Made by a program: the position numbers and the translations under genes | Notes under the pieces: generated by a model | The model's input: only the letters and a program-made list of their open reading frames with translations | The model's database searches: none | What the model was told of the DNA's origin: nothing | Assembly (NCBI GenBank): GCA_051892935.1 | Contig: JBJFGS010000010.1 | Span: forward strand, 4,820-68,819 | Reading direction: 5' to 3' | Length of the DNA stretch: 64,000 nt | Origin: Candidatus Coprovivens sp. | GTDB lineage: Bacteria; Bacillota_I; Bacilli_A; RF39; UBA660 | Part shown: in pieces, positions 50,536 to 56,382 of the stretch | Layout of the letters: the number at the start of each line of letters is the position of its first letter | Numbering within the stretch: position 1 is the first letter of the stretch

Positions 50536-50563
50536 TTGAAAATTTTACATTTTATGGTATTAT
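50536..50563 (+). promoter_or_regulatory. sigmaA-type promoter of the sortase operon
   Basis: TTGAAA, 16 nt (TGg extended -10), TATTAT. Confidence 0.55.
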
Positions 50564-50601
50564 ATATTATATAGTATAGAATGGAATAATAGAGGTGGCA
50601 T

Positions 50602-52158
50602 ATGAAGAAGATTACAGTTTTAATTAAGGATAATACTCTTATATTTAAATATCGTACTAATAAACCGGTTGAACCTAATTTATTAAATACTAATGTTATA
50701 TCTAATAACGAGTTAGTGTTTAGTGATGAATATATTGCTAATAATACTAAAATAGTTGGATTATTTATTTCTGATTTAGCTAAAGAAAAAGAAATAAAAG
50801 ATATATCTGTATCTACTAACGAATTAGGTGAATTAGTTTTAGATGTATTAAAAAGATTATCTAATATAGATTCATTTATAGTTACTAGTGATGAAAATGT
50901 TTCTTATTCTTTATGTGACAAGATTATAAAAAATAGAAATATAAAAAAATTAAATTGTTATTCTATCCCTCAATTCTTAGTTGAAAATTTAGACAAACAT
51001 AATATTATGGTCGAATCGAGAAATGAAGTGTTATTTACAAGTAATTTTATGGCATGTAACAATTTAACATCTTATTCAAAAATATATTATAAAAATAATA
51101 TAAAAATAAATCCCGTTCTATCTGATGATGATTTATTAGATTTAAAATCTTTTTGTATTATTAATAAATACTTAAAAGTTATTCATTTTGAAAATTATTC
51201 TTTAGATAATATAAAGAAAGTTGTCGAAGTATTAAAAGAATGTAAAGAAAAAAATATTATTTTGGAGATACATGATGATTTAGATGATAACGAAGATATT
51301 TCTGAATTAAAGTCTTTAAATAAAGAATTAAAATCTAAATATAAAATTAAAATTTCTTTAGTATATTCTAAGGATTATTTAGAAAATAATTATTTACAAC
51401 AAATTATTTTTACAACCTTAAAAATATGTGCATTAATAATATTTGCTATAGTTGGTTCAGTATTTGGATATATTTTATATAATAATTACCAATCAGAATC
51501 GAAAATTAATTCTATTATGGAGGAACTTCACGTTATAAAAGATAGAGTTGATACTGATGAAGAAGTATCTGATAGTACAAATAGAATTATTATAAACTCT
51601 TATGATAAGCTACTAGAGGTTAATTCCGATATGGTTGGATGGATAATTGTTAAAGGTACTAAAATAGATTATCCTATTGTTAGAACGACTGATAATGGAT
51701 ACTATTTACAAAGGAATTTCTATAAAGAAAAAGATTATAATGGTTGGGTATTTATGGATTATCGTAATAATATTGATGTATTAGATGATAATACTATAGT
51801 ATATGCTCATAATAGATTTACTAGTGGTGTAATGTTTGGAACACTACCTAATATAAGAAAGAGTAATTGGTATAAAGATTCTTCTAATTATGATATAACT
51901 TTTAATACATTATATATGAATGGTACTTGGAGAATATTTTCGTATTATGGAATTGAAGTTACGAGTGATTATTTAGTAACTAATTTTTATGATAAGAACG
52001 AGTATCAAAACTTTTTAAATATGATTACTGATAGAAGTGAGCATAAATTTGATACGAAAGTTACAACTGATGATAAAATACTTACTCTATCTACTTGTTT
52101 AGATGATAATAAGAGGTTTGTTGTTCATGCAGTATTATTAACTGATAATAATTCTTGA
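50602..52158 (+). CDS. srtB: class B sortase with a ~270-aa N-terminal cytoplasmic extension
   Basis: C-terminal MVGWIIVKGTKIDYPIVRTTDNGYYL, VYAHNRF, TLSTC, RFVVHAVL. TM IIFTTLKICALIIFAIVGSVFGYILY at aa ~268-293. AGAGGTGG RBS. Confidence 0.85.
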   Translation: MKKITVLIKDNTLIFKYRTNKPVEPNLLNTNVISNNELVFSDEYIANNTKIVGLFISDLAKEKEIKDISVSTNELGELVLDVLKRLSNIDSFIVTSDENVSYSLCDKIIKNRNIKKLNCYSIPQFLVENLDKHNIMVESRNEVLFTSNFMACNNLTSYSKIYYKNNIKINPVLSDDDLLDLKSFCIINKYLKVIHFENYSLDNIKKVVEVLKECKEKNIILEIHDDLDDNEDISELKSLNKELKSKYKIKISLVYSKDYLENNYLQQIIFTTLKICALIIFAIVGSVFGYILYNNYQSESKINSIMEELHVIKDRVDTDEEVSDSTNRIIINSYDKLLEVNSDMVGWIIVKGTKIDYPIVRTTDNGYYLQRNFYKEKDYNGWVFMDYRNNIDVLDDNTIVYAHNRFTSGVMFGTLPNIRKSNWYKDSSNYDITFNTLYMNGTWRIFSYYGIEVTSDYLVTNFYDKNEYQNFLNMITDRSEHKFDTKVTTDDKILTLSTCLDDNKRFVVHAVLLTDNNS

Positions 52159-52174
52159 AAACGGAGGGCTTACA

Positions 52175-55100: not shown

Positions 55101-56353
55101 TTGTATTTAATGGATATGATCTTAGTATATATAAGGAATTAGATGATTCTTTAAAACATTTCTTATTTGAAGAAAAAAACCTTATTATGGTTGCTGATGG
55201 ATATTATAAAGGTATTGTAGATAATTTAGGTATTATTATTTCAAAATGGGATAAAATAATTGAATTTGTTAAGGAATTAGATGAAGATATTACAAAATTA
55301 ACTTTGATTAGTATCGAGAATATTTTATCTCTAATTAATTTTGAAGATAATATTTTAGCTAAATCAATTAGTAAAAATATTATTAAATCAATATATGAAG
55401 ATGGATATTATGAAGTTAATGATTTAAACAAAAGAATTAATATGTTAGTTGATTTATTTAGAGAGTCTTATAAAAGAGTTACTAGTACTGTTCCTTATCT
55501 ATGTTATAAAGATGATATATATAGAATTGAAATATTAGATAATTATAATCAAGATATACTTAAAACGATAAAAGGTTCTTTATATAAGGTTGGAACTATC
55601 GGAAATGATTTCTTACATTATTCGATATTAAATAAAAATGGTATACAAATTGGTATATATAAAGAAAATGAGCTAGTAGCTAAAATATTAGGTATAAGAA
55701 ATGGAAATACAGTATACTTAAATGCTTTAGAGGGAGAAAAAAATACTGAATATAATGAATTACTAAGATTATTTGCTAATGAACTAATTAGAATTACTAA
55801 AGATGATATAGAACCGATATTGTATGTTACTATAGTAAATAATGATGTTTATAGTAGTAGAAATGGATTAAAAATCGATACTACTATGTGCCCTATTATA
55901 AATAATCCTATTAATAAGGTGTATTATGATTACGAGAAGTTTACTGAATATAAGAATTTATTAGATATAGATGATATGTATACTAATTATAAGGATAATA
56001 TTAGTACTTTACTTGCTAGTGACAATGTTGTTGATAAAAATAATTTTAAATATTATGATGCTGATGATAAGTATTATAGAAGAAGAAATAGTATTGTTAG
56101 ATTGAGTAATAATATTGGAGAAGAATATTTAAATAAGATTGATACTATATTATATTTATGTAAATTAGAAGATGAAAGTATCGATATTAATAATATTACT
56201 TTAAGTATGATTAATACTATTTATTTAGGAGATGACTTTGTATTATTTGTAACTAATAGAGATAATATTTTGAAGTTTGTTTTACCATATGATGAAAGAG
56301 CGGCAAAAGAAGTTGAATTATTATTGATACAAATAAAAGAAGGAATTGTTTAA
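52175..56353 (+). CDS. 1392-aa orphan cytoplasmic protein
   Basis: GGAGGG RBS, 16 nt after the sortase stop. Uninterrupted ORF. No TM, signal peptide, P-loop or other recognisable catalytic motif. Extremely N/K/I/L/D-rich. Confidence 0.75.
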   Translation: MNISDLKDILEDLVHTKLYVSSITTKEQQHKYKEMKKYLKKSDNLLEDIKTILVTRNNENFFAYDEYITDFLVNANIDIKLEILNNQSKYEDIIKNNNVYISIWDSLNNKERITYLENKKKYTDIDILLINYILKDSGNFKDNIVLCEVLNNADIRNKIPPFSIEINYTYNLLSYINLSDFEVCSILTKDSYTKLLLKKCKKFDDFLQIYESNNAIYNLILNNSLVFNNADNKSIYKFILDNPNFIGKFNNKYLDLFNILEITKISKLPTLDNDAFSAIIQKLYKLNPDEADNYFSEINLKKCSKHSISIYPFEYINNELQEKIFNTYNLFNKFIDTIMIEAINNRFDEEDIVNILRNDTFINDTSSYGIELLLNKLSFKSAFNMLQRKNIFNKINNLHVKLDTKDSIFFKGFLDSPVLVKKSEHNMIYEMLGLLNKDDVLYYITLPYILNELSNYEIINLAISKNIKLTDLYDNTELKNVLNITDLISYIDKLFETNIDLNIFKNKSICKKIFNLSDKQFNDINFDEVNYLFETVRMKSLLSKQDTKITILSYKSVLASYLVLGLDETIKLVNDGNKDITLEEIKQLQNEIVSEKILIFKENNSAIFQNMAKKIISNLYDIGECEDINEFSRRVRKNAYLDNVIYLILDNNFDTYNGVTNKFFGFIKYRTYDEYAAKKEIYDYSKAFTECYIYNKIKEYNEEFEKIILVNFKPKESVIYSKRKEIGKEFLNKLKFKLFVRALTDPNKDIYVNYFRDGYPINEVKNKYIKYLANEDVDFESILEHVLLPIVNDRFDKENCLCKLGINKPKNTDEYLKYLDDLKTVTELNTLIDKYKINYSFEQVISIMNYICYGNKLDVKLKKRELLKLKKAANLVLGLTGEIYVDKSASKFIYKDNMDVYNIEEIIEYSNYLKILDDIVNKTYSYVSKNMDSEKIKSAFSHDYFNAINTDNCVFPISSKYYEPRRRVLSINDLEVVFNGYDLSIYKELDDSLKHFLFEEKNLIMVADGYYKGIVDNLGIIISKWDKIIEFVKELDEDITKLTLISIENILSLINFEDNILAKSISKNIIKSIYEDGYYEVNDLNKRINMLVDLFRESYKRVTSTVPYLCYKDDIYRIEILDNYNQDILKTIKGSLYKVGTIGNDFLHYSILNKNGIQIGIYKENELVAKILGIRNGNTVYLNALEGEKNTEYNELLRLFANELIRITKDDIEPILYVTIVNNDVYSSRNGLKIDTTMCPIINNPINKVYYDYEKFTEYKNLLDIDDMYTNYKDNISTLLASDNVVDKNNFKYYDADDKYYRRRNSIVRLSNNIGEEYLNKIDTILYLCKLEDESIDINNITLSMINTIYLGDDFVLFVTNRDNILKFVLPYDERAAKEVELLLIQIKEGIV

Positions 56354-56357
56354 ATTT

Positions 56358-56382
56358 AAAACTCCAAATGATTTGGAGTTTT
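56358..56382. terminator. bidirectional terminator
   Basis: aaaactccaaa-tga-tttggagtttt (11-bp stem) between convergent genes. Confidence 0.8.

Follow-up and report, generated by a model that had tools for sequence, protein, structure and literature searches.

Canonical class B sortase (SrtB) loci are those of S. aureus, with SrtB-IsdC and the motif NPQTN, of B. anthracis, with NPKTG, and of C. difficile, with (S/P)PxTG, and structures are available (PDB 1ng5, 1rz2 and 4ux7/5gyj). Sortases are viewed as enzymes that act entirely outside the cell and take their specificity from a pentapeptide, and the helix and basic tail behind this motif are regarded as a generic stop-transfer device. We analysed a 64,000-nucleotide (nt) stretch of DNA (the window; contig JBJFGS010000010.1 of assembly GCA_051892935.1, positions 4,820 to 68,819, forward strand) from Candidatus Coprovivens sp., which encodes a 518-residue class B sortase with a large domain in front of its only transmembrane (TM) helix. 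The locus is predicted to be a dedicated, head-to-head SrtB-substrate pair of a spore-forming, uncultured gut Bacilli lineage of ~25% G+C. What is unusual is not the sortase or its substrate as such but the cytoplasmic domain of the enzyme, the conserved tail of the substrate and a strictly linked 1392-residue protein.

The enzyme resembles canonical SrtB in its homologous catalytic domain (E ~1e-33 to 1e-26), its match to TIGR03064, its His-Cys-Arg triad, its single N-terminal membrane anchor and its dedicated adjacent substrate with an NPxTG/xPxTG-type signal. Canonical enzymes have a few residues before the anchor, whereas a conserved folded cytoplasmic domain of 266 residues is found here in place of the short cytoplasmic N-terminus of type-II SrtB proteins. 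Beyond being basic, the substrate tail shows conservation of both sequence and length, haem-uptake (isd) genes are absent, and in half of the lineages a 1392-residue cytoplasmic protein is encoded in the operon. A literature search found no description of sortases with a folded cytoplasmic domain, and there is no curated family for this N-terminal domain (N-domain) or for the large protein. To our knowledge, cytoplasmic substrate recognition has not been described for any sortase. Tripartite C-terminal sorting systems are known in exosortase/PEP-CTERM and rhombosortase/GlyGly-CTERM (PMC3237569). These systems, and the sortase/signal pairs of NCBIfam such as NF040525 (LPKTxAVK-specific SrtB), are like the present locus in that one enzyme serves one or a few substrates through a family-specific extended signal of motif, helix and tail that is encoded beside the enzyme. 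We know of no description of these in which the processing enzyme bears a cytoplasmic repeat domain. The features of the sortase gene and of its divergent neighbour are as follows.

50602-52158, plus strand: fused sortase open reading frame (ORF), 518 residues, ATG behind AGAGGTGG
50602-51399, plus strand: N-domain, residues 1-266, a beta-hairpin, the loop LLNTNVIS (residues 27-34) and then about nine beta/alpha repeats
51397-51480, plus strand: single TM helix, residues 266-293, with the conserved polar motif FTTLKxC
51607-52158, plus strand: class B sortase catalytic domain, extracellular, residues ~336-518, with His403 (YAHNRF), Cys499 (TLSTC) and Arg505
49623-50459, minus strand: cognate substrate, 278 residues, with a signal peptide, a Cys-rich body and the C-terminus FAETG + TM + KKNNKFSRI-COOH
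49626-49733, minus strand: sorting signal of the 278-residue substrate

The assignment of the C-terminal part to SrtB, made in an initial annotation of this DNA, was borne out. TIGR03064 scored 170.4 bits over residues 270-505 (cut-off 153.75), PF04203 was matched in the catalytic domain, and residues ~300-513 matched SrtB structures of C. difficile, B. anthracis, S. aureus and others in PDB (E 3e-33 to 1e-21). His403, Cys499 and Arg505 were invariant in 120 of 120 aligned sequences. NF040525 was matched weakly, with 79 bits against a cut-off of 200. By TIGR03064, the catalytic triad and the nearby NPxTG-like substrate, the 518-residue protein is classed as a class B sortase, and transpeptidation is predicted. 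Its sole TM helix is preceded by a Lys-rich and followed by an acidic flank, which indicates an N-in/C-out topology, and no signal peptide or other N-terminal hydrophobic segment was found in the protein. It follows that residues 1-265 lie in the cytoplasm and the catalytic domain outside the cell, so that the sortase is a type-II membrane protein with its catalytic domain toward the wall. The single helix, the long extension without signal peptide and the lack of a short alternative ATG start had all been described correctly: in-frame Met codons occur at positions 1, 136 and 150 and next only at 306.

The distribution scan, with one genome per species, gave 55 loci, all in uncultured gut metagenome-assembled genomes (MAGs) labelled 'Bacilli', 'Tenericutes', 'Erysipelotrichaceae' or of the 'Mycoplasma sp. 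CAG:472'/'Coprobacillus sp. CAG:605' types. The MAGs with the fused sortase come from humans, rabbits, goats and other hosts, and the lineage is common but uncultured among human and animal gut Bacilli. The N-domain and SrtB are contiguous in 52 of the 55 species loci, and the other three are cut by contig ends. Of the best 120 clusters, 119 span 97-100% of the query; their identities are 56-99% and their lengths 510-584 residues. Conservation of alignment columns in the N-domain equals that in the catalytic domain, and the start MKK is invariant. The ratio of nonsynonymous to synonymous substitution (dN/dS) is ~0.08-0.3, alike for the N-domain, the catalytic domain and the large protein, figures that are rough because dS is saturated. 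The fusion is thus under purifying selection, and the N-terminal extension, which the initial annotation had pointed out, behaves as a real domain. A profile of the N-domain found 237 clusters at 50% identity among 1.84 billion representative proteins; full-length fusions made up 56 of the best 150, with the domain N-terminal in every one.

AlphaFold2 modelled the N-domain with pLDDT 86.9 and pTM 0.76, as a beta-hairpin, a low-confidence loop and about nine strand/helix units of 20-30 residues with an I/L pattern (e.g. NIKKLNCYSIPQFLVENLDK). The low-confidence loop contains the most invariant motif of the family, LLNTN[V/I]IS. Its LLNTN[V/I]I part does not vary among the fused proteins, with or without the large gene alongside, and is relaxed in stand-alone ones. 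Searches of the N-domain in Pfam (slices, E<=10), NCBIfam, PHROGs, PADLOC and PDB (phmmer and profile) gave no match, and no leucine-rich repeat (LRR) model of Pfam was among the hits. Foldseek on AlphaFold models, as the initial annotation had proposed, found nothing significant for the N-domain in PDB (best E 3e-3, TM-score 0.2-0.33); the sub-threshold matches were TIM barrels and RNI-type LRRs (tropomodulin, leiomodin, NLRP3/7, NLRC4 and TIR1). RNI-type LRRs, as in the C-terminal LRR of tropomodulin/leiomodin, the LRRs of NLR proteins and TIR1, have similar beta/alpha units of 20-30 residues with an I/L pattern, but the N-domain matches no LRR model of Pfam, its Foldseek scores are at E >=3e-3 and TM-score <=0.33, and TIM barrels score equally. 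Because these matches are sub-threshold and split between TIM barrels and LRRs, we call the N-domain LRR-like rather than a member of the LRR family. On the model, it is a putative beta/alpha solenoid of an undescribed family.

The N-domain is also found with its TM helix but no sortase. Such proteins are 11 of the best 150 representatives, are 278-301 residues long and have their C-terminus within a few residues of the TM helix. The three that were checked on long contigs (279-291 residues) are complete genes.

L062, 1755-2594: among yutH, yutD, yunB and spmA/B
L065, 5348-6223: adjoining a gene for a TPR protein
L066, 6001-6855: between mraZ and prsA, beside the mraZ-rsmH-ftsL-PBP2B cluster

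No sortase or sorting-signal protein is encoded near these genes, and for this reason they are not taken as split genes or frameshifts. The initial annotation had considered that homologues might carry the N-domain as a separate gene or through a frameshift; the domain does occur alone at these loci, but no split gene or frameshift was seen. In related bacteria the N-domain with its TM helix thus forms a tail-anchored membrane protein of its own. Since the module exists by itself, the sortase seems to be a Rosetta-stone fusion of the module to SrtB. The module constitutes an unannotated protein family, the first of two that are defined here.

In the initial annotation the locus was contrasted with srtB loci that carry substrates rather than giant cytoplasmic proteins. 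This contrast fell away, since the divergent neighbour is a conserved cognate substrate. The 278-residue protein has a full tripartite signal, with an N-terminal signal peptide and, at the C-terminus, a motif, a hydrophobic helix and a basic tail. In 49 loci the divergent upstream gene encodes a small secreted protein of 170-470 residues with an xPxTG sorting signal. The motifs, which are of the class B type, are mostly NPxTG, SPxTG, PPxTG or TPxTG (NPETG, NPDTG, NPKTG, NPQTG, SPETG, PPETG, TPDTG etc.); FAETG of the window is a variant, and its nearest relative (L026) has DPETG. Within the substrate, conservation is highest in the sorting signal, with a mean column identity of ~0.5 as compared to 0.2-0.38 in the mature part. 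FASYA is conserved in the TM helix of the substrate, as the polar FTTLKxC is in that of the sortase. Beyond the helix the cytoplasmic tail has a fixed length and a position-specific conservation, KKx[N/T]K[F/L/M]Y[K/R][I/V]-COOH, in 46 unique sequences, counted here from the C-terminus.

Position -9: K in 38 of 46
Position -8: K in 40 of 46
Position -6: N or T in 40 of 46
Position -5: K in 45 of 46
Position -4: F, L, M or I in 45 of 46
Position -3: Y in 35 of 46
Position -2: K or R in 41 of 46
Position -1: I or V in 44 of 46

When 947 ORFs of at least 100 residues from all fetched loci were examined, this pattern was confined to the adjacent substrates, their tandem copies (L016 and L053) and one adhesin of the window.

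36376-42402, minus strand: MucBP/SdrD-B adhesin, 2008 residues, with eight MucBP repeats, an SdrD-B domain and the C-terminus NPDTS + TM + KKYKPRMKKI

The C-termini of the FAETG and NPDTS proteins (the 278- and 2008-residue ORFs) are as annotated initially. The adhesin is likely a second substrate because it has the NPDTS signal and a tail that partly matches the conserved one. Pilins beside class C sortases in L057-L059 end with KNEKKC or KNGKKC and lack the pattern. Of these, L057 and L059 belong to the most divergent fused-sortase loci and have no adjacent xPxTG substrate upstream; downstream (L057, 11618-14942; L059, 11611-14712) are genes for a conserved protein of 266-270 residues, a class C-like sortase (223-230 residues) and a pilin-like VPKTG protein. 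Judged across the loci, the substrate is the sole near-universal partner of the fused sortase.

The other conspicuous neighbour is the gene for the 1392-residue protein. Both ORFs, the GGAGGG site and the 16-nt spacing are as described in the initial annotation, as is the terminator that closes the pair.

52175-56353, plus strand: 1392-residue ORF, ATG 16 nt past the sortase stop codon, behind GGAGGG
52175-55477, plus strand: residues 1-1101, cytoplasmic all-alpha solenoid
55478-56353, plus strand: residues ~1102-1392, alpha/beta region, a GNAT-like fold and then a small beta-sheet subdomain
56358-56382: hairpin terminator common to the sortase operon and the convergent GT2-TPR gene
56382-57464, minus strand: convergent gene for a cytoplasmic GmaR-like glycosyltransferase, GT2 + TPR (Pfam)

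This hairpin is the sole terminator-like one in 49500-57600, and none lies between the sortase gene and the 1392-residue gene. The large protein had been called an orphan. It is unannotated, but 127 homologous clusters were found at 90% identity; nearly all of those among the matches listed are 1366-1397 residues long and 46-98% identical, and they have no Pfam domain and no name. A profile search for remote homologues returned nearly the same clusters and two new ones, both ~46% identical. This ~1390-residue solenoid/GNAT-like protein is the second unannotated family. No TM helix or signal peptide was found in it, and there was no match in PDB (sequence and profile), Pfam (slices, E<=10), NCBIfam, PHROGs or PADLOC. 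A mobile-element origin was considered and rejected, as tblastn against phage and plasmid collections gave no match and the flanks are housekeeping and sporulation genes; the membership in a plasmid or phage family that the initial annotation had allowed for was thus not found.

AlphaFold2 modelled residues 193-1392 of the large protein from 34 aligned sequences with pLDDT 87, as a long alpha-solenoid that gives way to alpha/beta structure from about residue 1100. Foldseek found no PDB match at E<=1e-3. GNAT-fold proteins, including GCN5/PCAF, bacterial GNATs, L/F-transferase, FemAB and Mom, made up most of the top 50 matches in PDB and many of those in BFVD; these matches are local, covering 85-150 residues with a root-mean-square deviation down to 3-4 A and a probability of ~0.9-1.0, at E values of only 0.03-0.2. 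The region of residues ~1100-1280 superposes locally on GNAT transferases (GCN5/PCAF, bacterial GNATs, L/F-transferase, FemAB), so that the earlier statement that the protein has no recognisable motif needs correction. It differs from them in having no sequence match and no evident acyl-CoA loop Q/RxxGxG/A; the sequence of the loop that follows the third strand is LEGEKNTEY (consensus LEGxxDxxY). It also differs in being appended to an alpha-solenoid of ~1100 residues and in being absent from some divergent homologues (truncated in L030, missing in L035 and L038). The strongest invariants of the protein lie in the helical region, at residues ~330-570. On the model, we call the C-terminal domain GNAT-like; it may be non-catalytic. 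The sole Foldseek match below E 1e-3 was BFVD A0A7G9A3X2, an uncharacterised phage protein of 656 residues (E 2.6e-4, probability 1.0, TM-score 0.14-0.25), which probably reflects a common helical-repeat architecture.

The occurrence of the large gene across the 55 loci was as follows.

22 loci: large gene directly downstream, 42-85% identity
5 loci (L027, L028, L030, L035 and L038): divergent large gene, 25-31% identity
25 loci: no large gene, with GT2-TPR or unrelated genes after the sortase
3 loci: contig ends, uninformative

Wherever it was seen, the large gene is on the same strand and immediately 3' of a fused sortase (~510-584 residues). In 28 of the 30 loci measured the two genes are 16-83 nt apart; the distance is 234 nt in L015 and, with an opposite-strand gene in between, 946 nt in L027. 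The tight 16-nt spacing noted initially is specific to the window, the gap being 18-83 nt in most others. The 25 loci without the large gene form a more distant clade, with N-domain identities of 35-48%. Because the large gene is absent from 25 of the 52 loci that reach past the sortase, we regard its product as an accessory and not an obligate partner. Linkage of the large gene to the fused sortase is therefore strict, but the sortase itself does not need the large gene. Conserved linkage, as first suggested, thus stood in one direction only: an operon-like pair exists wherever the large gene occurs.

What the N-domain may do is suggested by its fold and by what accompanies it. Repeat solenoids are protein-binding modules, and the N-domain could be a protein-binding platform. 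The substrate tail is its likeliest ligand, because no other conserved cytoplasmic feature goes with the fused sortase in nearly all loci. Once the substrate is exported, its tail and sorting-signal helix would remain in the membrane beside the sortase anchor, with the tail in the cytoplasm. Substrate recognition by the enzyme could then take place on both faces of the membrane, or the enzyme could retain the cleaved C-peptide and dispose of it. Binding of the tail by the N-domain, for two-sided recognition and/or for handling of the C-peptide, is the best explanation that we can offer, and we consider it nearly an even chance. A more elaborate form is put forward only tentatively: the catalytic domain would read xPxTG, the LRR-like domain would bind the tail (KKxNKFYRV-COOH) and hold the C-peptide, and the 1392-residue protein would plug in within one clade. 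This protein, putatively co-transcribed and restricted by lineage, would probably dock on or act with the same cytoplasmic platform.

Stated more broadly, we infer that the cytoplasmic domain serves either to read the substrate tail or to position the enzyme. The presence of a folded cytoplasmic domain on SrtB together with a conserved substrate tail suggests that anchoring is guided from within the cell, through recognition, placement or regulation, and binding of the tail, if true, would amount to inside-out control or read-out of surface anchoring. The observations of the initial annotation were confirmed, and its interpretation, that the sortase is coupled to a cytoplasmic partner, is partly supported: a cytoplasmic input is reasonable with the N-domain inside the cell, but the large protein is not necessary for it. 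A membrane sensor that reads a cleaved sorting-signal peptide is known in S. gordonii, SGO_1180, as cited in PMC11326707. SGO_1180 is like the proposed arrangement in being a membrane protein that specifically recognises the substrate remnant (C-pep), and differs in being a separate two-component histidine kinase, whereas the proposed reader here is fused to the sortase and has no signalling output domain.

Several observations weigh against binding of the tail by the N-domain. The substrates are orthologous, and the conservation of their tails could be partly inheritance. An acidic N-domain to match the basic tail was sought, but its net charge is about neutral, with no obvious electrostatic fit. 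The tail of the adhesin matches only partially, with an MKKI end and one residue more. In L057-L059 the fused sortase has no neighbouring substrate that carries the tail motif, and the stand-alone forms suggest that the domain has a function independent of sortase. The Foldseek matches of both models in PDB are sub-significant. That the large gene adjoins the sortase gene says less about a functional link than it seems to, because the whole neighbourhood of ~20 kb (CotJB/JC, two unannotated genes, GT2-TPR and a 422-residue protein) is syntenic in the same genomes.

A different role for the N-domain, which we hold possible but rather improbable, is placement of the enzyme. The LRR-like domain would tether the sortase to a landmark such as the division or peptidoglycan-synthesis machinery, a secretion site or the sporulation compartment. 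With the same reserve, the substrate would be anchored at a defined place or time, and the large alpha-solenoid protein would serve as a scaffold in the large-gene clade. In enterococci and streptococci, focal or septal localisation depends in part on the short cytoplasmic tails of SrtA. The stand-alone genes of L066 (mraZ-rsmH-ftsL-PBP2B) and L062 (yutH/yutD/yunB/spmAB) lie in settings that suit this explanation, the fused sortases of L056 and L057 are also near mraZ/rsmH/PBP, the organism is a spore former by the SpoVAC/AD, sigma factor and CotJB/JC genes of the window, and the large protein is a long helical repeat of the kind expected of a scaffold. However, no cytoplasmic neighbour is consistently common to all loci, the large protein is missing in about half of them, the neighbourhoods of the stand-alone forms differ from each other, and the conserved tail of the substrate, which the N-domain would bind under the preferred explanation, is left unexplained.

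The N-domain could also recruit enzymes, in that the GNAT-like domain and/or the GmaR-like GT2-TPR protein modifies the substrate or a wall precursor. The GT2-TPR protein matches phrog_13126 over its full length (E 2e-106), the glycosyltransferase domain of Listeria GmaR (E 2e-7) and the TPRs of OGT, and is possibly a protein glycosyltransferase. Its gene often lies near the fused sortase in both clades and adjoins it directly where the large gene is absent. Such enzymatic coupling gains from the resemblance of GT2-TPR to the protein O-glycosyltransferases GmaR and OGT and from its flanking of the sortase in both clades, from GNAT-fold matches that include aminoacyl transferases of the Fem and L/F-transferase types besides acetyltransferases, and from the occurrence of the large gene solely behind a fused sortase. 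We nevertheless judge it unlikely. There is no canonical acyl-CoA loop evident and no Pfam GNAT match even at E<=10, the C-terminal domain is lost wholly or in part from L030, L035 and L038, the large gene and GT2-TPR are each missing from about half of the loci, and nothing shows that the substrate is modified.

There may be no functional link at all. The N-domain would then be an independent passenger that became fixed when a tail-anchored protein donated its TM helix, and the large gene would be a syntenic neighbour. The synteny of the ~20-kb neighbourhood across the same genomes and the N-domains that function without sortase in other lineages speak for this, as does a genome full of large unannotated ORFs. 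Since big unannotated proteins are common in this genome, the missing annotation of the 1392-residue protein alone weighs less. But the fusion is intact under purifying selection down to ~35% identity, LLNTN[V/I]I shows strict invariance only in the fused form, being relaxed in the stand-alone one, and the large gene is on the same strand and directly behind the sortase down to 25% identity, which makes the absence of any link quite improbable.

An artefact, whether a wrong start, frameshift-joined genes or cargo of a mobile element, phage or defence system, is effectively refuted: one in-frame TTG at codon 221 could yield a 298-residue product that includes the TM helix, and one database entry (P0087) is such a 298-residue version, but conservation at the protein level takes in M1-K2-K3 and the entire N-domain, dozens of independent assemblies have the fusion intact, the setting is chromosomal (NusA, IF-2, PNPase and ProRS), and neither protein matches phage, plasmid, PHROG or PADLOC entries.

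The remaining features of the window describe the organism and the setting of the locus.

7430-9503 (minus strand), 45699-46729 (plus strand) and 20039-21187 (plus strand): SpoVAD, SpoVAC, a sigma-70-family factor, CotJB, a Mn-catalase-type CotJC and a DacF-like D-Ala-D-Ala carboxypeptidase
9611-11002, 13546-15474, 17960-19939, 21264-23462 and 60680-63352: large ORFs without a Pfam domain, 463-890 residues
50500-50563: divergent promoter-like hexamers, TTGAAA-16-TATTAT (plus strand) and TTAACA-18-TATAAT (minus strand), in an intergenic region of 142 nt

The window has a G+C content of ~25% and encodes NusA, IF-2, PNPase, ProRS, TruB and ScpA/B, as expected of a chromosome. Because the sporulation genes (SpoVAC, SpoVAD, the sigma factor, the DacF-like carboxypeptidase and CotJB/CotJC) are present, this 'Mycoplasma/Tenericutes'-labelled lineage of 25% G+C is taken as an endospore former with a cell wall. 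The promoter-like hexamers are not above chance in AT-rich DNA (79 matches found, 83 expected). Rfam and tRNA scans found no non-coding RNA near the sortase locus, and no second sortase was found in the window.

Two overlapping ORFs for unannotated cytoplasmic proteins lie on the minus strand at 46735-48513 (592 residues) and 48503-49522 (339 residues), with an overlap of 11 nt. Neither product had a match in Pfam, PDB, PHROG or PADLOC, and a RelE/HigB-like C-terminus of the 339-residue protein, suspected by eye, found no support in Pfam or PDB. The pair is kept upstream of the substrate gene in L001-3, L007, L008, L013, L017, L019, L026, L027 and L053. On the other side of the GT2-TPR gene, 57561-59258 (plus strand) encodes a membrane-anchored CAP/YkwD-domain protein of 565 residues with a long Gly/Ser linker, and 59304-60572 (minus strand) a membrane protein of 422 residues. 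These two proteins have a common domain of ~150-220 residues (tblastn E 3e-8), and both are recurrent neighbours of the locus.

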